The notes under the pieces: model-generated | Told to the model about the DNA's origin: nothing | The model's database searches: none | The model's input: only the letters and a program-made list of their open reading frames with translations | Shown: in pieces, positions 7,595-16,746 of the stretch | Position numbering within the stretch: the first letter of the stretch is position 1 | Layout: every line of letters begins with the position of its first letter | NCBI GenBank assembly: GCA_018830645.1 | Contig: JAHJSA010000037.1 | Coordinates: 1 to 54,084 of the forward strand | Reading direction: 5' to 3' | From: Actinomycetota bacterium | GTDB lineage: Bacteria > Actinomycetota > Thermoleophilia > RBG-16-64-13 | Length of the DNA stretch: 54,084 nt | Program-made: the position numbers and the translations under genes

Positions 7595-8920
7595 ATGACC
7601 CACACCCTCATCTACCCCTCGCACAGCAGGCATGGTGCGAGCGGACACCTGGAGATCGACGGCTGCGACGTGGTCGATCTGGCCGCCGAGTTCGGTACTC
7701 CACTCTTCATCTACGAAGAGAAGACACTGGAAGACCAGTGTCGGCGATATCAGGAAGCGTTTCGTGCGCGCACAGACGACTTCGAGGTGATCTACGCCAG
7801 CAAGGCCTTCTGCTGTTTGGCCGTGTGCCAACTCGTGGAGCGCGAAGGCATGTCCATCGACGTGTCTTCCGGCGGCGAGTACCACACGGCGCTCGCCTCC
7901 GGTTTCCCCACCCACCGCATCTTCTTCCACGGGAACAACAAGACCGAGGCCGAACTCCGTTACGCTCTCGAGAACGGTGTGGGCTTCGTGGTGGTCGATA
8001 GTTTCGACGAGCTCCGGCTCCTGGAGCGGCTGGCGGCCGAGCGGGGCGAGGTCCAGCGGGTGTTGCTTCGCATCACCCCCGGCGTCGAGGCTCACACCCA
8101 CGAGTACATACAGACGGGTCAGCTCGATTCGAAGTTCGGCTTCGGGCTGGTCGAGGGCCAAGCCGAGGAGGCTATCCGTCTCGCCCTCGAAGCCGCCCAC
8201 CTGGATCCGATCGGGGTGCACGCCCACATCGGCAGCCAGATCTTCGAGCTCGAGGGGTTCCGCCGTGCCATCGCTGTCCTGGTGGACCTGATCAAGCGAA
8301 CCCATGACAGCCTCGGGTTCGACTGCCGCTACGTCAACGTGGGCGGCGGTCTGGGCATCCGCTACACGGAGTCCGACGTCCCCGTTACCATCGACGAATA
8401 CGTGGACTGCAAGGTGCGGGGCGTGCAAGAAGAGATGGCGCGGGTCGGGCTCCCGATGCCGCGGGTGCTGGTGGAGCCGGGGCGTTCCCTGGTGGGCAAG
8501 GCCGGTATCACCGCCTATCGCGTCGGCACGATGAAAGAGGTGCCGGGCATCCGCGCGTACCTGAGCGTGGACGGCGGCATGAGCGATAACATCAGGCCCA
8601 TGCTGTACGACGCGCGGTACGAGGCGATGATCGCCGATCGGGCCGACGATGAGCTGGACACTCTGGTGACCGTGGCCGGCAAGCACTGCGAGAGCAGCGA
8701 CATCCTGATCAAGGATGTGATGCTCTCCAGCCCACGCGTGGGCGACGTACTTGTGCTCCCCGCGACCGGAGCCTATTGCTATGCGATGGCCTCGAACTAC
8801 AACGGCAATCCACGGCCCGCGGTCGTCATGGCGCGCGATGGCAAGGCCCGTGTGATCGTGGAACGCGAGACGTACGACGATCTCGTGGCCAGGCAGCTTC
8901 CTCTCGAGGGTCGGGGGTAG
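7595..8920 (+). CDS. lysA: Diaminopimelate decarboxylase
   Basis: 441 aa with a PLP-fold type III layout, motifs YASKAF (PLP lysine) and GGGLGI, and a C-terminal beta-barrel domain. The lysA-hom neighbourhood is typical of actinobacteria. Confidence 0.95.
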   Translation: MTHTLIYPSHSRHGASGHLEIDGCDVVDLAAEFGTPLFIYEEKTLEDQCRRYQEAFRARTDDFEVIYASKAFCCLAVCQLVEREGMSIDVSSGGEYHTALASGFPTHRIFFHGNNKTEAELRYALENGVGFVVVDSFDELRLLERLAAERGEVQRVLLRITPGVEAHTHEYIQTGQLDSKFGFGLVEGQAEEAIRLALEAAHLDPIGVHAHIGSQIFELEGFRRAIAVLVDLIKRTHDSLGFDCRYVNVGGGLGIRYTESDVPVTIDEYVDCKVRGVQEEMARVGLPMPRVLVEPGRSLVGKAGITAYRVGTMKEVPGIRAYLSVDGGMSDNIRPMLYDARYEAMIADRADDELDTLVTVAGKHCESSDILIKDVMLSSPRVGDVLVLPATGAYCYAMASNYNGNPRPAVVMARDGKARVIVERETYDDLVARQLPLEGRG

Positions 8921-8922
8921 GG

Positions 8923-10206
8923 GTGAACGAAGACGGCACGCGCGTGGTCGGTGTGGTCCTACTGGGCTTCGGCACCATCGGATCCAGCGTGTATCGCATG
9001 ATCGAGAAGGAGTGGGAATCGATCTTGGAGTCGACGGGTGTCGAGCTCCGGGTGGTCCACATCCTCGACAACGACCCGGCGAAGGTGGGCGTTGGAGCGC
9101 CGGCGCACCTGTTCAGCAGCGACCCGCATGCGGTGCTCTCCGATCCTGCCGTGGATGTCGTGGTCGAGCTCATCGGCGGGGTCGAAACCGCTTTCGAGTT
9201 CATCGACCTGGCCTTCCGCAACGGGAAGGACGTGGTCACGGCCAACAAGCAGCTGGTTGCCAACAGGGGCGCCGCGCTGTTCGATCTGGCCCGCGACCTG
9301 GGCCGGCAACTGCGGTTCGAGGCGTCGGTCGCCGGGGCCGTCCCCGTGATCCGCGTGATGCGGGAAGGGATGTTCGCGGCCGGGCTCGACACGGTGTACG
9401 GCATCGTCAACGGCACCACGAACTACATTCTCACCGCGATGTACGAGGGCGCCGGCGGCTATTCCGACACGTTGGCGCGGGCCCAGGAGCTCGGGTACGC
9501 GGAGGCCGACCCCACAGCCGACGTGGGCGGCGGCGACGCCGCGGCCAAGATGGCTATCCTGGCTTCCATCGCGTATCGGTCTCGCGTCACGATGGCGGAC
9601 GTCACCTACGAGGGCATCGAGGCGGTGTCGCTGGAGGACGTGCAGTACGCGAAGGACTTCGGGTTCGTGGTGAAGCTCGTGGGTGCGGCGCGCCTGATCG
9701 ATGGAAGGGTGAGCGTGCGCGTGCATCCGGCGCTCGTGCCAAGGGAGCACCTCCTTGCTTCGATCAACGGTTCGATCAACGCGGTCTACCTGCAAGGAGA
9801 CGCGATCGGCGAGATCATGCTGACGGGGCCCGGGGCGGGGGGAGACCCCACGGCGACCGCGGTGGTGGCCGATATCGTGACCATCGCCGGTACGGAACGG
9901 GCCGGCTTCCTACAGAACTGCAGCTGCTACCGGAACCTCGAGTTCCTGCCCGAGAACCTGGCGGAGTCGGCCTTCTTCATCCGTATGCAGGTGGAGGATC
10001 GCGCGGGGGTGCTCGCCCAGATCTCCTCGATCTTCGGAGAGCACGGGGTGTCCATCGAGAGCATGATCCAGAAGGGGCACAGCGACGAGGCCGAACTGGT
10101 GTTGATCACCTACCCGTCTGTGGAGGAGTCCTTCTTCCGCGCGATAGACGGGATCGCAGGCCTCAGTTGTGTGAGGAGCCGGCCGATGACGATCCGGGTG
10201 CTGTAG
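8923..10206 (+). CDS. hom: Homoserine dehydrogenase (with C-terminal ACT domain)
   Basis: The Rossmann N-terminus VGVVLLGFGTIGSSV, the catalytic domain and a C-terminal ACT-like region. The start was chosen at GTG 8923 just after the lysA stop; the ORF-track start at 8776 overlaps lysA. Confidence 0.9.
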   Translation: MNEDGTRVVGVVLLGFGTIGSSVYRMIEKEWESILESTGVELRVVHILDNDPAKVGVGAPAHLFSSDPHAVLSDPAVDVVVELIGGVETAFEFIDLAFRNGKDVVTANKQLVANRGAALFDLARDLGRQLRFEASVAGAVPVIRVMREGMFAAGLDTVYGIVNGTTNYILTAMYEGAGGYSDTLARAQELGYAEADPTADVGGGDAAAKMAILASIAYRSRVTMADVTYEGIEAVSLEDVQYAKDFGFVVKLVGAARLIDGRVSVRVHPALVPREHLLASINGSINAVYLQGDAIGEIMLTGPGAGGDPTATAVVADIVTIAGTERAGFLQNCSCYRNLEFLPENLAESAFFIRMQVEDRAGVLAQISSIFGEHGVSIESMIQKGHSDEAELVLITYPSVEESFFRAIDGIAGLSCVRSRPMTIRVL

Positions 10207-10255
10207 CCTCGGGCGAGCGCGCCGCGACCGGGGTGCGGCGGCAGTGAGGTGACTG

Positions 10256-11200
10256 ATGTCCAGAGGGTGGAAGATCTTCTTGTGGATCGCCGGCGTCTTC
10301 GTGCTGGGTTACGTGGTCTTGCTGGTCGCGTTGCTCGCATCTGCCGGCGACGGCGTCGCTTGGGGCTCCGGGTCGGGCACCGTGGGGGTGATCCGGCTGG
10401 ATGGGGTCATCTCTGCGGACAGCGAGCCGACGGCGTTCTCGGCAGGGGGCATCGATCCGGTCTCCACCGTCGAGCTGCTCCGCTCGGCCGACGAAGACCC
10501 CGACATCGACGCGATCGTGCTCCGGATCAACAGCCCCGGAGGCAGCCCGGCCGCTTCGTGGGAGATCTACCAAGCGGTGAGCGAGATGCAGAAGCCCGTG
10601 GTGGTGTCGGTGGCAGACGTCGCCGCCTCAGGTGCGTACTACTTCGCTAGCCCGGCCGATGTGATCATGGCGGCTCCCACGTCGGAGGTGGGCAGCATCG
10701 GCGTCATCCTCATGGCGCAGGACTTGGAAGGTCTGCTGGAGAAGGTGGGCATACGGTACACGGTGCTCACGAGGGGAGAGCACAAGGATATCGGCAGCCC
10801 CGCGCGGGCGATGACCGACGAAGAGAAGCGCATCCTGCAGGAGCAGGTGGACATGATCTACGAGCGATTCATCGCCGATGTCGCCGACGGACGCCCCGAA
10901 CTCGACGCGGACCAGGTGCGGGAGTTGGCCACCGGCTTGACGTATCCGGGAGAGGAGGCGTTGCGCCTCGGCTTGATAGACGAACTCGGCTCCTACTCGG
11001 ATGCGCTCGATGTGGCCGCGGACCTGGCTGGGCTCGATTTGGAAGACTATGGGGTGACGTACCTGCAGCCCGAGTTCGGCGCAGACCTCCTGTCGCTGTT
11101 CCTGGGCGTGAGCAGCGGCGCCCTTCGGCAGATCGGTATCGGTCTGGCGCAGGGATTGACTGCGCCCGCGCTCGACGGCGCCCGACTCCGCCTTGAATGA
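10256..11200 (+). CDS. sppA: Signal peptide peptidase SppA (36K type, S49 family)
   Basis: An N-terminal TM anchor followed by a ClpP/crotonase-fold S49 domain, with SPGGS (Ser nucleophile context) and DVAASGAYY motifs. Confidence 0.85.
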   Translation: MSRGWKIFLWIAGVFVLGYVVLLVALLASAGDGVAWGSGSGTVGVIRLDGVISADSEPTAFSAGGIDPVSTVELLRSADEDPDIDAIVLRINSPGGSPAASWEIYQAVSEMQKPVVVSVADVAASGAYYFASPADVIMAAPTSEVGSIGVILMAQDLEGLLEKVGIRYTVLTRGEHKDIGSPARAMTDEEKRILQEQVDMIYERFIADVADGRPELDADQVRELATGLTYPGEEALRLGLIDELGSYSDALDVAADLAGLDLEDYGVTYLQPEFGADLLSLFLGVSSGALRQIGIGLAQGLTAPALDGARLRLE

Positions 11201-11228
11201 CCCGCCTGAGGAGGTGAGGGACCCCGTT

Positions 11229-12035
11229 ATGGATTCGAAGACCCGCTCTCTGCGTATCGTGCACTTCTCCGACATCCACTGCGGTTCGCAGTACTTCGTG
11301 CCGAACCTCCTGGAGCGCACCCTCGTGGAGATCAACGACCTCGCGCCGGACATGGTGGTGATCACGGGCGACCTCACGAACATGGGCTACCGGCAGGAGT
11401 TCCGTGAGGCTCAGGAGTACCTCGAGAAGCTGCAGTGCCAAGAGGTGCTGGTTGTGCCGGGCAACCACGACAGTCGCAACGTCGGCTACATGCACTTCGA
11501 ACGTCTCTTCGCTCGGAAGCGGGACTCCCTCATCTCGAAGGGGGGAGTGACCGTACTCGGTATCGACTCCACGGAGCCCGACCTGGACTACGGCCGGGTG
11601 GGCCGCCACCGCTACGCGTGGATCGAGGAGCAGTACGCGGAGCATCCCAACGACTTCAAGATCTTCGCCCTGCATCACCATCTGCTTCCTATCCCAGGCA
11701 CGGGCCGCGAGCGAAACGTGGTGCACGACGCGGGAGACGTGCTCGAGGTGCTCATCTCCCAGGGAGTCAAACTGGTGCTCTCGGGACACAAGCACGTGCC
11801 CTACGCGTGGCGCCTCGAGGACATGTTCGTGGTGAACACGGGTACCGTATCGACCCTGCGACTGCGGGGGAACACGAAGCCCTGCTACAACGTGGTGCAG
11901 ATGGAGGGCGGCCACGTCACCGTGACGCGGCGCTACCCGTTCCACGGTGGAGAGGTGATCGTGGAGTTCGACGAAGAAGACACCACCTACGTGCGCCACG
12001 ATTTCCAGCTCGATCGGGTGGTCTCGGAGTCGTGA
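11229..12035 (+). CDS. Calcineurin-like metallophosphoesterase
   Basis: Motifs HFSDIHCG, GDLTN, GNHD and GHKH are the classic MPE metal-ligand blocks. It is preceded by a GAGGAGGTGAGGGA Shine-Dalgarno. An alternative TTG start lies at 11193. Confidence 0.8.
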   Translation: MDSKTRSLRIVHFSDIHCGSQYFVPNLLERTLVEINDLAPDMVVITGDLTNMGYRQEFREAQEYLEKLQCQEVLVVPGNHDSRNVGYMHFERLFARKRDSLISKGGVTVLGIDSTEPDLDYGRVGRHRYAWIEEQYAEHPNDFKIFALHHHLLPIPGTGRERNVVHDAGDVLEVLISQGVKLVLSGHKHVPYAWRLEDMFVVNTGTVSTLRLRGNTKPCYNVVQMEGGHVTVTRRYPFHGGEVIVEFDEEDTTYVRHDFQLDRVVSES

Positions 12036-12037
12036 AC

Positions 12038-13465
12038 ATGATTGGGTCGGCGGGCGGCGGCCCACCGCCCGCGGCCGTCGCTCTCATCGACGGCGAGCAC
12101 TATCCCCCTGTGGTGGTCGACGCTCTGCAGGCTCTCGCGCACCGCTTCTCGTTCCTCGCGGCGCTGTTCCTGGGAGGCTTCGAAAAGATCAAGGGGGACG
12201 ATCTTGCCGCCACCGCGGCCCGGATCTACGGCCTTCCCGTGCACTTCCCCGGCCCTTCCGGCGTGGAAGGCGCATTGCGTCAGGTGGTCGATACGTATCG
12301 ACCTTCGGTAATCGTTGACCTCAGCGACGAGCCTGTGGTAGGGTACCGAGAGAGGTTCCGGCTGATCAGCCATGCGCTGGCCCGGGGCGTCGCGTACGAA
12401 GGATCCGACTTCCGTTTCTCACCCCCAAGGCTCGACCGCCTTGCCACGAATCCCTCGCTCTCCATCATCGGGACCGCGAAGCGCGTTGGAAAGACGGCAC
12501 TGAGTGGCTACGTCGCCCGCATCATGGAAGACCACCTGCGGGAGTCCACCGAGCGGTGGGTGAACGAAGGGTCGGGCATCGTGATCGTGGCGATGGGTCG
12601 CGGCGGGCCCGCGGAACCCGAGATCATCGACGGTGGGGCACGGGTGCTCACAGCGAACGATCTCTTGGAGTGGAGTCGTGCCGGGCGCCACGCCGCCTCC
12701 GACCACTTCGAAGACGCGGCTCTGAGCAGGATGACCACGGTGGGCTGTAGGCGATGCGGGGGCGGGATGGCAGGCGAACCCTTCGTCTCCAATGTGGCCG
12801 AGGGGGCGCGTGTGGCCAATGGACTCGGCCCTGCGCTCACCATATTCGAGGGGAGCGGTGCGGCTCTGCCCCCAGTGGCGACCGACGCGCGCATGTTGGT
12901 AGCCGGGGCGCACCAGCCGCTGGAGTACGTGACGGGGTACCTAGGCACGTATCGCGTGCTGGTGAGTGATGCGGTGGTGCTCACCATGGCGGAGGAGCCG
13001 CTGGCGGACGCGGCGCGTGTCGCCCGGCTAGTCGAGGAGGTGCAGGCCATCAAGAAGGACGTACCGGTGATCCCGGTCGTGTTCAGGCCTCGACCGATGG
13101 AGCCCATAGACGGTAGGACGGTCGCTCTCTTCACGACGGCTCCGGCGTCGCAGGAACCTGTGCTGCGGCGGTACCTGGAAGAGCGGTATGGCTGCAAGGT
13201 CTTGGCCTTCTCCGACCGCCTCTCCGATCGAGCGGGGCTGCGGGAAGACTTGGCCCGGCCTGAGGTCGACAAGGCGGAGTTGCTCCTCACAGAGATCAAG
13301 GCGGCTGCCATAGATGTGGTCGCCGAAGAAGCGGACCGGCGAGGGGTGCCCACGATCTTCCTGGATAACATCCCGATCGAGACCGGCGGTGCGCGCGAAG
13401 GTGAACTCGCCGAGACGTGCCGCCACCTCGCGCACACAGCAGCCCGAAGATACGGGAGCGCATGA
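12038..13465 (+). CDS. cpgS: Cyclic 2,3-diphosphoglycerate synthetase-like protein (cDPGS family)
   Basis: About 475 aa with a P-loop GTAKRVGKTA and architecture and length matching archaeal cDPG synthetase. It is immediately followed, with overlap, by a 2-phosphoglycerate kinase homologue, the canonical partner. Confidence 0.75.
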   Translation: MIGSAGGGPPPAAVALIDGEHYPPVVVDALQALAHRFSFLAALFLGGFEKIKGDDLAATAARIYGLPVHFPGPSGVEGALRQVVDTYRPSVIVDLSDEPVVGYRERFRLISHALARGVAYEGSDFRFSPPRLDRLATNPSLSIIGTAKRVGKTALSGYVARIMEDHLRESTERWVNEGSGIVIVAMGRGGPAEPEIIDGGARVLTANDLLEWSRAGRHAASDHFEDAALSRMTTVGCRRCGGGMAGEPFVSNVAEGARVANGLGPALTIFEGSGAALPPVATDARMLVAGAHQPLEYVTGYLGTYRVLVSDAVVLTMAEEPLADAARVARLVEEVQAIKKDVPVIPVVFRPRPMEPIDGRTVALFTTAPASQEPVLRRYLEERYGCKVLAFSDRLSDRAGLREDLARPEVDKAELLLTEIKAAAIDVVAEEADRRGVPTIFLDNIPIETGGAREGELAETCRHLAHTAARRYGSA

Positions 13466-14421
13466 CGCCTCTGGGAACAAGTGAGAACGGTCAGGATGGG
13501 ATCTCCCTGCGCATCGTAAGCGACGAGCACGGAGTGCCCTTCTCGAAAGGTCTCCTCGCACAGTCTCTCACTGCCACCGGTCTCTCGCCGGACAGGGCCT
13601 ATCGCGTCGCGATCGAGGTCGAGAAGCAGGTGCGGCAGACCGACAGCCTCGACATCTCCATCGACGAACTTCACGCCCTCGTGGGACGCGTCCTCGCCAC
13701 CATGGAGGGCCCTGAGGTCGTGGCTCGCTACCGGAAGTGGAACCAGATCGGCATGGCGGAGAAGCCCGTGATCGTACTGATCGGTGGCGCGACCGGAGTG
13801 GGCAAGAGCACGATTGCCAGCCAACTCGCGAACCGGCTGGGCATCGTCCGCTTGATCTCGACCGACTCGATCCGCCAAGTGATGCGCACCTTCTTCTCGC
13901 CGGCGCTGATGCCGGCGATCCACTACTCGTCGTTCAATGCCGGAGCGGCGATCCGGGTGCCGGTCGGCAGGAACCTCGACCCTCATCTGGTAGCGTTCGT
14001 GGAGCAGGTGGAGATGGTCTCGGTGGGAGTGGAGGCGATCATCGAGCGGGCCATCACCGAGGGCACGTCGCTGGTGGTGGAGGGCGTGCATCTTGTGCCG
14101 GGCTTCCTTGATCCCGCGAACTTCATTCAGGCGCTGCACCTCCATCTGACGGTGAGCGTGAGCGATACAGATCTACACATGAGCCACTTCCTGGTGCGCG
14201 AGCGCGAGACCGACGGACGCCGCCCATTCACCAGGTACGTGGAGCACTTCGACGAGATCAGGCGCATCCAGGACTTCATCCTCGAGCGCGCCGCAGCCGA
14301 AGGGACCATCGTGGTGGATAACGTGAACATCGACGACGCGGTGGCTACTGCCGTGGACGCTCTCTACACCATGATCGAAGAGGGCGAGCAGGTCTCGGTC
14401 GCGACGGGTGGTGAGGCATGA
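13462..14421 (+). CDS. 2-phosphoglycerate kinase-like protein (ATP-cone N-terminus plus P-loop kinase)
   Basis: N-terminal ATP-cone-like segment (ISLRIVSDEHGVPFSKGLLAQSL...) then the P-loop GGATGVGKST. It is 319 aa, as for methanogen 2PGK. ATGA overlap with cpgS. Confidence 0.75.
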   Translation: MTPLGTSENGQDGISLRIVSDEHGVPFSKGLLAQSLTATGLSPDRAYRVAIEVEKQVRQTDSLDISIDELHALVGRVLATMEGPEVVARYRKWNQIGMAEKPVIVLIGGATGVGKSTIASQLANRLGIVRLISTDSIRQVMRTFFSPALMPAIHYSSFNAGAAIRVPVGRNLDPHLVAFVEQVEMVSVGVEAIIERAITEGTSLVVEGVHLVPGFLDPANFIQALHLHLTVSVSDTDLHMSHFLVRERETDGRRPFTRYVEHFDEIRRIQDFILERAAAEGTIVVDNVNIDDAVATAVDALYTMIEEGEQVSVATGGEA

Positions 14422-15380
14422 CCTCCGAAGACGGCCGGCGCTGCATGTGCACCGACTTCGTTCGCGCCACCGAGGCGGCGGCGCTGGCGGCTGGCCGTTG
14501 GATGGGACACGGAGATAGCGACGCCGCCGACGCCGACGCCCAAGCGGCCATGGCCGCGGCGCTCGACGTGCTGCCGGTTGAAGGTGTGGTGGTCATCGGT
14601 GAGGGCGATCGCGAACAGGCCCCGCGCCTCTTCGTGGGCGACCGTGTGGGAGCGGGCGGCACGCGGTGCGATATCGCGGTGGATGCCCTGGAGGGTGCCG
14701 GGATCGTGGCGCGCGGCCAGGCGGGGGCCATGAGCGTGGTGGCCGCCGGGCCGCCGGACGGCCTGATGTCGATGCCGAACATGTATCTTCAGAAGCTGGT
14801 AGTGGGGGCGAAGGCGGCCGGCCGGGTGGACATCGACGGCCGCGTGATAGACACTCTGCGGGCCATAGCCGAAGCGTACGAGCGGCCGGTGGCCGAACTC
14901 ACCGTGATCATCTTGGATCGCCCTCGCCACGAAGACCTGATCGCCGAGGTGCGGCGGGCCGGCGCCCGTATCAAGCTCATCCCAGACGGTGACGTCACGG
15001 CCGGCATCGCCGTTGCGGTGCAGGATGCGACCGACCAGCTGTACGTGGGGATCGGCGGGGCGGCCGAAGGTGTCCTCACGGCCGTCGCGATGAGATGCCT
15101 TGGGGGCGAGATCCAGGCGAAGCTCTGGCCGCTGTCCCGGCGAGAGGTGGAATTGGCGCGGCAGCATGGTATCGACGACATCGAGACCACACTGCGCACT
15201 GAGGACATGGTCACGGGAGACGTACTCTTCGCCGCGACGGGAGTGACGGAGGGCGAGTTCCTCAAAGGTGTGGAATACCTGGGCTTCGGCGTTCGCCTGC
15301 ATTCTATGGTCATGTGCAGCCGCTGCCGCGATGTCCGCATGATCCAGACCACTCACCTGCACACGGACGTCACGCGCTAG
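14418..15380 (+). CDS. glpX: Fructose-1,6-bisphosphatase class II
   Basis: Characteristic GlpX blocks (VVIGEGDR, DIAVDALEG, ILDRPRHEDLI, GIGGAAEGVL). ATGA overlap with the upstream gene. Confidence 0.9.
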   Translation: MTSEDGRRCMCTDFVRATEAAALAAGRWMGHGDSDAADADAQAAMAAALDVLPVEGVVVIGEGDREQAPRLFVGDRVGAGGTRCDIAVDALEGAGIVARGQAGAMSVVAAGPPDGLMSMPNMYLQKLVVGAKAAGRVDIDGRVIDTLRAIAEAYERPVAELTVIILDRPRHEDLIAEVRRAGARIKLIPDGDVTAGIAVAVQDATDQLYVGIGGAAEGVLTAVAMRCLGGEIQAKLWPLSRREVELARQHGIDDIETTLRTEDMVTGDVLFAATGVTEGEFLKGVEYLGFGVRLHSMVMCSRCRDVRMIQTTHLHTDVTR

Positions 15381-15413
15381 CTAGAAGGCCCTGCCCATTT
15401 GACGTATGCGAAA

Positions 15414-15430
15414 GGCCGGGCTACCCGGCC
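15414..15430 (+). terminator. GC hairpin (GGCCGGG-cta-CCCGGCC) downstream of glpX; weak terminator candidate
   Basis: Perfect 7-bp stem 34 nt after the glpX stop. The downstream T-tract is poor (gcgatttgg). Confidence 0.35.
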
Positions 15431-15495
15431 GCGATTTGGAGCGTGAAAGCACACATGTCGAGACGATCGGAAGAAAGAATGACACTGGAGGGTGA

Positions 15496-16746
15496 ATGGA
15501 GCTGACAGAACTAGAACCGAGGCTCCTATCCGACCTGCACGTGGTTGCGGGGGAGCTTGGCATCAAGAACTTCAACAAGTACTCGAAGCAAGACCTCATC
15601 TCGAAGATCTTGAGCGAGCAGTCGGTGGATCGCGGGGTGCAGTACCGCACGGGCCTCTTGGACGTGTTGCCGGACGGTTTCGGCTTCCTGCGCACCATGG
15701 GCTACACGCAGTCCGACTCCGACATCTACGTCTCGTTGTCGCAGATCCGGAGATTCAAGCTCCGTCGCGGCGACGAGATCACGGGGCAGGTGCGCACCCC
15801 GAAGGACAGCGAGAAGTACCACGCTCTGCTCAAGATCCAGACGGTGAACGGCCTCGATCCGGAGCAGGCGCGACACAGGCCGAACTTCGACGCGCTCACT
15901 CCTCTCTTCGCAGAGGATCGGTTGCGTCTCGAGACAACACCGAACCGCATCGCGCCTCGGGTCATGGACCTCATCTGTCCTGTGGGCAAAGGCCAGCGGG
16001 GCCTGATCGTGTCCCCGCCGAAGGCGGGCAAGACCACCATCCTCAAGGAGATCGCCAACTCGATAGCCGAGAACAACCCGGAAGTGCACCTGCTCGTACT
16101 GCTCGTCGACGAGCGGCCCGAAGAGGTCACCGACATGGAGCGCTCGGTGAACGGCGAGGTGGTCAGCTCGACGTTCGATCAGCCTGCGGAGAACCACCTG
16201 CAGGTGACCGAACTCGTGCTCGAGCGCGTCAAGAGGTTGGTGGAAGTCGGGCGAGACGTGGTCGTGCTCCTCGATTCCATCACGAGGCTTGCGCGCGCCT
16301 ACAACCTCGCCGCACCCGCCTCCGGCCGTATCCTTTCGGGCGGGGTGGACTCGGCGGCTCTCTATCCACCGAAGAAGTTCTTCGGGGCCGCGCGGAACAT
16401 CGAAGAGGGGGGATCGCTCACGATCCTGGCGACCGCGCTCGTAGAGACCGGATCGCGCATGGACGAGGTGATCTTCGAGGAGTTCAAAGGCACCGGCAAC
16501 TGGGAGGTGCACCTCAACCGTCAGCTGGCCAACAAGCGCATCTTCCCGGCCATCGACATAGATAAGTCGGGCACCCGCCGTGAAGAGCTCCTCATGGATC
16601 CGGCGGAAGCGAAGATGGTCTGGAAACTCCGCTCCGTGCTTCACGCACTCGACCCGAACGCGGCCATAGAGCTGCTCATCGGCAAGATCAAGGACACGAA
16701 GTCGAACCAGGACTTCCTGGAGGCCATGCGCAAGAACTCCCGTTGA
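15496..16746 (+). CDS. rho: Transcription termination factor Rho
   Basis: 416 aa with the N-terminal Rho_N / cold-shock-like domain, Walker [18 protein letters not shown], and Q- and R-loops. Confidence 0.95.

Follow-up and report, generated by a model that had tools for sequence, protein, structure and literature searches.

A metallophosphoesterase gene linked to cDPG synthesis genes in bacteria and archaea, a candidate for the hydrolase of the cDPG pathway

INTRODUCTION

An enzymatic activity that converts the stress solute cyclic 2,3-diphosphoglycerate (cDPG), a cyclic pyrophosphate, to 2,3-DPG, cDPG hydrolase, was described in Methanothermobacter thermautotrophicus by Sastry et al. in 1992. 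As summarized in a review, the enzyme was membrane bound and inhibited by K+ and phosphate, and the cDPG synthetase (cDPGS) of M. fervidus is reported to be reversible (PMC1224877). The residues by which M. fervidus cDPGS binds 2,3-DPG, Mg2+, and ADP have since been described (PMC10690619), and cDPG can be produced enzymatically in one step (PMC12136491). In the literature, cDPG is still presented as exclusive to hyperthermophilic methanogens. The cDPGS and 2-phosphoglycerate kinase (2PGK) genes of Thermococcales had been noted earlier and are pressure induced. The cDPG papers that we found contained no mention of bacterial cDPGS operons or of a metallophosphoesterase (MPE) neighbor in Thermococcales, and they reported no detection of cDPG in Thermococcales or Actinomycetota. 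An earlier note on the locus studied here had stated that cDPG hydrolase has no confidently assigned gene, and indeed a full-text literature search revealed no paper that assigns one, nor any paper that ties an MPE to cDPG. Breakdown of cDPG is thus an orphan activity, described biochemically in 1992.

Among the characterized MPEs, the class III cyclic-nucleotide phosphodiesterases Rv0805 and CpdA/Icc and the glycerophosphodiesterase GpdQ share a calcineurin-like fold with five metal-binding motifs and use a binuclear center to hydrolyze phosphodiesters, whether cyclic or acyclic. GpdQ is a promiscuous phosphate-scavenging diesterase. Here, we describe an MPE gene that overlaps a cDPGS homolog, and we compare its product and its gene neighborhoods with those systems.

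RESULTS

The MPE gene heads a four-gene unit

The window, i.e., the whole stretch of 54,084 nucleotides that was analyzed, contains the following features around the MPE gene.

10256..11200, plus strand: SppA-type signal peptide peptidase (Peptidase_S49, 2.6e-46), stop TGA at 11198-11200, 28 nt before the ATG of the MPE gene
11210..11221, plus strand: purine-rich Shine-Dalgarno-like stretch GGAGGTGAGGGA before the MPE start, read from the sequence
11229..12035, plus strand: MPE open reading frame of 268 aa, ATG 11229, stop TGA 12033-12035, candidate cDPG-cycle hydrolase
12032..13465, plus strand: cDPGS homolog, start GTG 12032 or ATG 12038, identified by PDB matches
13462..14421, plus strand: 2PGK with an N-terminal ATP-cone, identified by NCBIfam models and Pfam ATP-cone
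14418..15380, plus strand: class II fructose-1,6-bisphosphatase GlpX (Pfam FBPase_glpX, 1.3e-112; TIGR00330)

The earlier note had described a calcineurin-like phosphoesterase at 11229-12035, directly upstream of a cDPGS homolog from which it is separated by a 2-nt gap or with which it shares a GTGA overlap. The reading frame is real and its product belongs to the MPE family, and the junction is exactly as described, as GTG 12032 overlaps the MPE stop codon in the sequence GTGA, while ATG 12038 leaves a gap of 2 nt. The motif GGAGG/GAGG is found at 11210-11219, 5′ of ATG 11229. An alternative upstream start is available at TTG 11193, but ATG 11229 was favored because homologs of 266 to 268 aa (the best with 97% identity) span the open reading frame end to end.

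The product of the downstream gene matched M. fervidus cDPGS (PDB 8ork) with an E value of 8.3e-112 over residues 13-448, with further matches to PDB 8oru (8.3e-112) and 9sxb (1.4e-90). The ligand-binding and catalytic residues of the M. fervidus enzyme are kept in the alignment, namely, E45/K46, K145/R146/T150 in the P-loop, D208, E305, P335, T353, and E404. Judged by this full-length homology and by the conserved ligand residues, the neighbor is a genuine cDPGS homolog, as had been claimed. It matched no model in the Pfam and NCBIfam copies searched.

The stop codon of cDPGS overlaps the start codon of 2PGK, ATG 13462 (ATGA, 13462-13465), and that of 2PGK overlaps the start codon of GlpX, ATG 14418 (ATGA, 14418-14421). 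2PGK gave E values of 1.3e-95 and 7.8e-93 with the NCBIfam 2-phosphoglycerate kinase models, both matches remaining under the curated cut-offs, and GlpX scored 299 bits with TIGR00330, for a cut-off of 259. As 4-nt overlaps link the successive genes, MPE-cDPGS-2PGK-GlpX is one unit headed by the MPE gene. A scan for promoters and terminators yielded nothing above background and no terminator-like site within these four genes. The SppA gene is missing from many MPE-cDPGS loci (e.g., L004-L006) and is therefore probably a variable upstream neighbor outside the functional unit.

The MPE is predicted to be soluble and has an intact two-metal site

The MPE matched Pfam Metallophos (PF00149) at 2.5e-21 (77 bits, cut-off 21.5), and all five motifs of two-metal MPEs are present, i.e., D15-I-H17, G47-D48, G78-N79-H80-D81, H149-H151, and G186-H187-K188-H189. 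The protein, with a pI of 5.8, is predicted to be soluble. Neither a signal peptide nor a transmembrane or hydrophobic segment was found (maximum Kyte-Doolittle mean over 19 residues, 1.11), and therefore it would work on cytoplasmic substrates. An AF2 model was obtained with a pLDDT of 79.6 and a pTM of 0.83. Its low-confidence loops, residues 117-125 and 152-164, contain invariant arginines, and we infer from the model that they might be mobile substrate-binding lids. In the alignment, the Arg/Lys-rich loop residues R83, R126, R160, R162, K188, R211, and R213 are conserved family-wide. The combination of these invariant loops with an intact catalytic site would fit a small polyanionic substrate.

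The nearest PDB structures were those of Rv0805 and GpdQ (phmmer, 9e-11 to ~1e-10; Foldseek, 5.8e-12, TM 0.6-0.7), with identities of ~17-22%, about 21% for Rv0805. In the Foldseek ranking, they were followed by purple acid phosphatases, and all top matches were MPEs with a probability of 1.00, in agreement with the beta-sandwich alpha/beta fold of the superfamily. Mre11 structures aligned less well than Rv0805 (TMq 0.55 versus 0.69), and because the MPE has only 268 aa, it cannot accommodate the capping domain of SbcD/Mre11. Several assignments were rejected: CpdA/Icc (NCBIfam NF008359; 49 bits for a cut-off of 225), SbcD (TIGR00619; 19.7 bits for a cut-off of 77.65), and the DS9 anti-phage phosphoesterase (NF053862; 79 bits for a cut-off of 420, partial matches only). 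The earlier note had suggested looking for orthology to SbcD/Mre11 or another characterized MPE. None was detected, with NCBIfam scores far under the cut-offs, and the protein is a member of the MPE superfamily that belongs to no characterized family.

The window MPE thus has the calcineurin-like fold and the five metal-binding motifs of Rv0805, CpdA/Icc, and GpdQ. It differs from these enzymes by extra Arg-rich loops at 117-126, 152-164, and 211-217 that are invariant in its subfamily. A conserved partnership with cDPGS and 2PGK likewise sets it apart, as the characterized enzymes all lack one.

The MPE-cDPGS pair is conserved in bacteria

We performed a scan seeded with cDPGS, using one genome per species. 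It detected 193 cDPGS relatives, and the analysis retained the best 80 loci, 60 bacterial and 20 from Methanobrevibacter. The 60 bacterial loci among the best 80 of 193 were labeled Actinomycetota (Thermoleophilia, Gaiellales, Coriobacteriia, Anaerosomatales, and Acidimicrobiia), except for a few labeled Eubacteriales, whose synteny is as in Actinomycetota. An MPE ortholog was detected by tblastn immediately 5′ of cDPGS in 56 of these 60 bacterial loci, with identities of 52-97% (50-97% when the metagenomic loci described below are included), and in the 56 loci of this best-80-of-193 set 2PGK usually comes next. A start codon that overlaps the MPE stop is available in 46 of the 56 loci (the overlap is 4 nt in 41 of them and 1 or 8 nt in the other 5), and the overlap is retained although MPE identity falls to ~52%. 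Four actinobacterial loci, L030, L035, L040, and L060, have SppA-cDPGS-2PGK without an MPE gene, and a profile HMM search of these four loci at E <= 10 detected neither an MPE nor a remnant of one.

An exhaustive MPE-seeded search over 1.84 billion cluster representatives gave 226 clusters at E <= 1e-30. Beyond the orthologs, it revealed two groups, single-domain proteins at 40-50% identity and two-domain proteins of ~500 aa at 30-37% identity. A metagenome scan with the alignment of tandem MPE proteins as the query provided 80 more loci. When the contig continued for at least 400 nt past a metagenomic single-domain MPE gene, cDPGS was directly next in 49 of 53 cases, and the other four MPEs, with identities of 40-54%, are those that diverge most. 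At the metagenome loci L110, L134, L141, and L164, 2PGK is missing and MPE-cDPGS is kept. Since some loci keep the pair without 2PGK, MPE-cDPGS represents the conserved bacterial core.

Both scans revealed the same broad actinobacterial synteny, lysA-hom ... MPE-cDPGS-(2PGK)-(GlpX)-rho, and the metagenomic MPE-cDPGS loci end in rho at ~70% identity. As all of them share the lysA-hom ... rho synteny, the bacterial cases are not independent and correspond to about one ancestral event that was retained.

The library at 50% also contained five apparent MPE-cDPGS fusions (P0127, P0144, P0205, P0231, and P0269). They were discarded as Rosetta-stone evidence because they contain Arg-rich segments that are out of frame, as is typical when high-GC assemblies are frameshifted.

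Tandem MPEs cluster with cDPGS and 2PGK in archaea

The two-domain proteins, called MPE2 below, have ~490-550 aa with two MPE domains and are 30-40% identical to the window MPE. By cluster look-up, they were found in Thermococcus, Methanofastidiosa, "Methanomicrobia," Asgard archaea, and some bacteria. In Thermococcus barophilus MP, cDPGS (Pfam CpgS_N), 2PGK (with ATP-cone), a CBS pair protein, and MPE2 follow one another on the same strand, and tblastn alignments with the window proteins showed identities of 41% for cDPGS, 39% for 2PGK, and 40% for the N-terminal MPE domain. The order cDPGS-2PGK-CBS-MPE2 is also found on a Theionarchaea contig and at metagenome loci L092 and L094. At L098, CBS-MPE2 faces a convergent cDPGS-2PGK pair, and on an Asgard (Promethearchaeota) contig, MPE2 faces such a convergent pair without CBS. 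Two further loci, L089 and L097, have 2PGK-CBS-MPE2, with no cDPGS within 6-8 kb. With the exception of the Asgard contig, a stand-alone CBS-pair protein precedes the archaeal tandem MPEs; it is absent from the bacterial operon.

The archaeal tandem MPEs, among them WP_013466724 of T. barophilus, which carries the annotation "lacZ expression regulatory protein," have the motifs GNHDxRNVG, HHHxxPxPxTGRERN, and GHxH in common with the window MPE. Like the window MPE, the archaeal proteins cluster with cDPGS and 2PGK. Unlike it, they have a duplicated domain, and the metal motifs of the second copy are degenerate in Thermococcales and Theionarchaea. The archaeal clusters provide independent support, with three to four other gene arrangements that involve cDPGS and/or 2PGK. 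Because two MPE branches cluster with these genes in differing arrangements, the link between the MPE and cDPG genes goes beyond inherited gene order.

In Pyrococcus yayanosii, a CRISPR-cas island separates CBS-MPE2 from 2PGK/cDPGS, which lie ~18 kb away. Since the flank on the right matches that of T. barophilus, an insertion seems to have split the cluster. In the P. yayanosii proteomics list, in which 2PGK and cDPGS are up, PYCH_14380 is strongly down; this protein was considered as the MPE and rejected, as it is not an MPE. The CBS-MPE pair is not among the regulated genes of that list. The tandem MPE match of Methanofastidiosa sits at a contig end, and three other contigs proved too short to show gene context.

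Family members and cDPGS genes without the link

No MPE of the window family was detected within 6 kb of the 20 Methanobrevibacter cDPGS loci (profile HMM, E <= 10). The Methanobrevibacter cDPGS genes stand alone amid unrelated genes, although a member of the MPE family with 42% identity (P0176) is encoded in one Methanobrevibacter genome. Conversely, some MPEs have no cDPGS nearby, including that of a WOR-3 bacterium and those at L095, L100, L103, L111, L131, L150, and L159. In Thermoleophilum album, the gene for a member with 47% identity is located near pstSCAB-phoU and is flanked by genes for a PHP-type protein and for a membrane protein of 570 aa, which is not cDPGS. In Desulfurobacterium, a tandem MPE gene is the last of an ABC-importer operon in which a PF01663 phosphodiesterase is also encoded. 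No alignment column separates the cDPGS-linked MPEs from the unlinked paralogs, i.e., no residues were found that are kept in the former and not in the latter.

DISCUSSION

The solid points of this analysis are the MPE gene, its intact catalytic motifs, its translational coupling to cDPGS by an overlap, and the recurring association of MPE with cDPGS/2PGK in distant lineages. The genomic data tie the MPE to the cDPGS/2PGK module, and they are compatible with ring opening of cDPG, dephosphorylation of 2,3-DPG, and a broader organophosphate esterase. That the MPE acts in cDPG/2,3-DPG metabolism is highly probable in our view. It is a strong candidate for the soluble binuclear hydrolase of this pathway, and that it converts cDPG to 2,3-DPG is about as likely as not. 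The earlier note had proposed a synthesis/turnover pair in which the MPE is the cDPG hydrolase, and co-occurrence in other genomes as a way to check it. Co-occurrence was confirmed in 56 of the 60 bacterial loci among the best 80 of 193, in 49 of 53 metagenomic cases, and in the archaeal clusters. The proposal is thus partly supported, as a link with the cDPGS/2PGK module, while the conversion of cDPG to 2,3-DPG is the step that we infer.

In such a cycle, 2PGK would produce 2,3-DPG from 2-phosphoglycerate, and cDPGS would then spend ATP to close 2,3-DPG into the cyclic pyrophosphate cDPG. Most likely, a metal-bridged hydroxide of the MPE would attack one ring phosphorus and the other phosphate would be expelled, this phosphoanhydride cleavage regenerating 2,3-DPG. 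The enzyme might continue to phosphate release. Ring opening by an MPE is chemically plausible, because a phosphate monoester would act as the leaving group and because other MPEs cleave phosphoanhydrides, including LpxH, ApaH, and ADPRibase-Mn. Besides its function as a solute, the cDPG pool could serve as a mobilizable store of phosphate, carbon, and energy. The E. coli operons ppk-ppx and glgBXCAP likewise combine genes that build up a store with genes that degrade it. Synthetase and hydrolase of one store are co-transcribed there as proposed here, but the enzymes are unrelated and the likeness is by analogy only. Against the hydrolase reading, stoichiometric co-translation of a synthetase and a hydrolase could lead to futile cycling if the hydrolase were not regulated. 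In archaea, regulation would presumably occur via the CBS protein that precedes the tandem MPE, which suggests nucleotide-dependent control.

The reaction proposed for the window MPE is that catalyzed by the hydrolase of M. thermautotrophicus, and the inhibition of that enzyme by K+ and phosphate fits cDPG as a mobilizable store (PMC1224877). The same source describes the M. thermautotrophicus enzyme as membrane bound, in contrast with the window MPE, which has no membrane segment. In addition, the cDPGS genes of its order, Methanobacteriales, have no adjacent MPE, unlike those of the bacterial operon.

Alternatively, the MPE might act as a phosphatase that removes one phosphate from 2,3-DPG, which both 2PGK and ring opening produce, and returns 2- or 3-phosphoglycerate to central metabolism. 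The ring would then be opened by a different enzyme or by cDPGS running in reverse. This function would account for the tandem MPEs of L089 and L097, found with 2PGK and CBS and with no cDPGS within 6-8 kb, and the Arg-rich pocket is equally suited to the more highly charged 2,3-DPG. Purple acid phosphatases, which are phosphomonoesterases, are among the structural neighbors of the MPE. The reported reversibility of M. fervidus cDPGS also agrees with it (PMC1224877). However, the tightest and most conserved bacterial coupling is with cDPGS rather than 2PGK, and MPE-cDPGS persists where 2PGK is absent. Moreover, the closest relatives in sequence and structure, Rv0805 and GpdQ, are diesterases, and a 2,3-DPG phosphatase paired with 2PGK would run a pure ATP-wasting cycle. 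We therefore consider a phosphatase function unlikely.

Another explanation for the adjacency to cDPGS is a shared phosphorus economy, the MPE being a phosphate-scavenging enzyme that cleaves organophosphate di- or monoesters with broad specificity. The T. album paralog beside pstSCAB-phoU and the Desulfurobacterium protein, encoded last in an ABC importer operon with a PF01663 phosphodiesterase, would suit such a role, as would the lack of residues specific to cDPGS-linked MPEs and the fact that GpdQ is the nearest characterized relative. Nevertheless, a 4-nt overlap with cDPGS held over ~50% sequence divergence is unexpected for a generic scavenger, as is an association that recurs in three to four gene arrangements, and an enzyme with no signal peptide or transmembrane segment would meet cytoplasmic substrates, which makes this explanation distinctly improbable. 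Finally, an ordinary cyclic-nucleotide phosphodiesterase of the CpdA/Icc or Rv0805 type, in a neighborhood that is inherited order without functional meaning, is suggested by the "CpdA" or "Icc" labels of homologs at JGI/NCBI and by Rv0805 as the best PDB match, but it is very improbable given the NCBIfam CpdA score of 49 bits for a cut-off of 225, the ~21% identity to Rv0805, and the differently arranged archaeal clusters, which inherited order does not explain.

Returning to the cDPG hydrolase, we tentatively propose, as a possibility that we would not yet call probable, that this MPE subfamily is the long-missing enzyme, with a single domain in Actinomycetota and, in Thermococcales, Theionarchaea, and Asgard archaea, as a tandem protein associated with CBS. 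Together, 2PGK, cDPGS, and the hydrolase might then form a complete and regulated cycle that functions as a phosphate/energy buffer or a solute system in many organisms beyond hyperthermophilic methanogens, including many Actinomycetota known from metagenomes only. What is new here is the MPE subfamily and a pathway role for an orphan activity; the fold was already known. The MPE thus represents a gene candidate for cDPG breakdown that is backed by clustering across domains. An assay with the purified enzyme would be straightforward because cDPG is obtainable enzymatically in one step (PMC12136491). The MPE would also matter for the engineering of cDPG production hosts, from which a hydrolase must be absent. 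Should the proposal hold, a cDPG cycle would run in many organisms other than hyperthermophilic methanogens. The genes for cDPG synthesis are common in Actinomycetota, rumen Methanobrevibacter, Asgard archaea, and Theionarchaea, and this wide distribution calls into question the textbook restriction of cDPG to hyperthermophilic methanogens.

Organization of the bacterial operon

Beyond the junction between the metallophosphoesterase (MPE) and cDPG synthetase (cDPGS) genes, ATGA overlaps were found in the window between cDPGS and the 2-phosphoglycerate kinase gene 2PGK (13462-13465) and between 2PGK and GlpX (14418-14421), indicating a four-gene unit whose last gene codes for a class II fructose-1,6-bisphosphatase. 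The GlpX position is occupied by another gene in Coriobacteriia-type loci, as seen in L040, a cDPGS-2PGK locus devoid of MPE:

L040, 8278-8940: transaldolase/FSA gene

Four actinobacterial loci (L110, L134, L141 and L164) have the order MPE-cDPGS-GlpX-rho, and the gap from cDPGS to GlpX is too small to accommodate 2PGK.

The operon is flanked by lysA-hom(-SppA) and rho (7595-16746 of the window). In M. tuberculosis, among other actinobacteria, the place held here by the operon is that of thrC-thrB. In L040, a GHMP kinase gene (thrB-like) is located between hom and SppA.

Distribution of the cDPG synthesis genes

According to the literature, cDPG is exclusive to hyperthermophilic methanogens. 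In contrast, the cDPGS and 2PGK genes are widespread in metagenome-assembled genomes of Actinomycetota, including Thermoleophilia, Coriobacteriia and Acidimicrobiia. The pair is also present in Asgard archaea, Theionarchaea and Thermococcales, and Methanobrevibacter of the rumen and gut harbor cDPGS alone. These observations cover 12032-15380 of the window, the cDPGS-seeded loci L001-L080, and loci L086, L090 and L173.

Archaeal tandem MPEs

The archaeal relatives are tandem MPEs, and a stand-alone CBS-pair protein of approximately 135 residues is always encoded directly upstream (L086, 4588-6524; L173, 5564-7596; L089, 5581-7464; L171, 4584-6512).

Loss of the DxH and GHxH motifs sets the second MPE domain of the Thermococcales and Theionarchaea proteins apart from that of the Asgard protein, which is largely intact.

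The L171 locus is that of Pyrococcus yayanosii:

CP002779, 1273674-1285185: P. yayanosii locus

There, a CRISPR-cas island lies between 2PGK/cDPGS (PYCH_14390/14400) and the CBS-tandem MPE pair. PYCH_14380, a hypothetical protein of 474 residues, is encoded directly next to 2PGK. Its abundance in the proteome drops 5-7 fold under the pressure stresses at which 2PGK and cDPGS increase (supplement of PMC4890121).

MPE paralogues and unusual relatives

MPE paralogues were found in phosphate-economy contexts in Thermoleophilum album and Desulfurobacterium atlanticum:

L081, 6964-15821: T. album MPE neighborhood, with a PHP/CpsB-like protein, a 570-residue membrane protein, pstSCAB-phoU and a response regulator
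L172, 1-7452: D. atlanticum tandem MPE, the last gene of an ABC-importer operon that also codes for a PF01663 phosphodiesterase

Five proteins of the clustered library resemble MPE-cDPGS fusions (P0127, P0144, P0205, P0231 and P0269) but were not accepted as such. In each, long out-of-frame segments rich in Arg are present, and frameshifts in error-prone assemblies of this GC-rich operon have most likely produced chimeras. P0185, a relative of 375 residues (41% identity), appears, on visual inspection of its sequence alone, to have a C-terminal extension similar to a low-molecular-weight phosphotyrosine phosphatase/ArsC domain.
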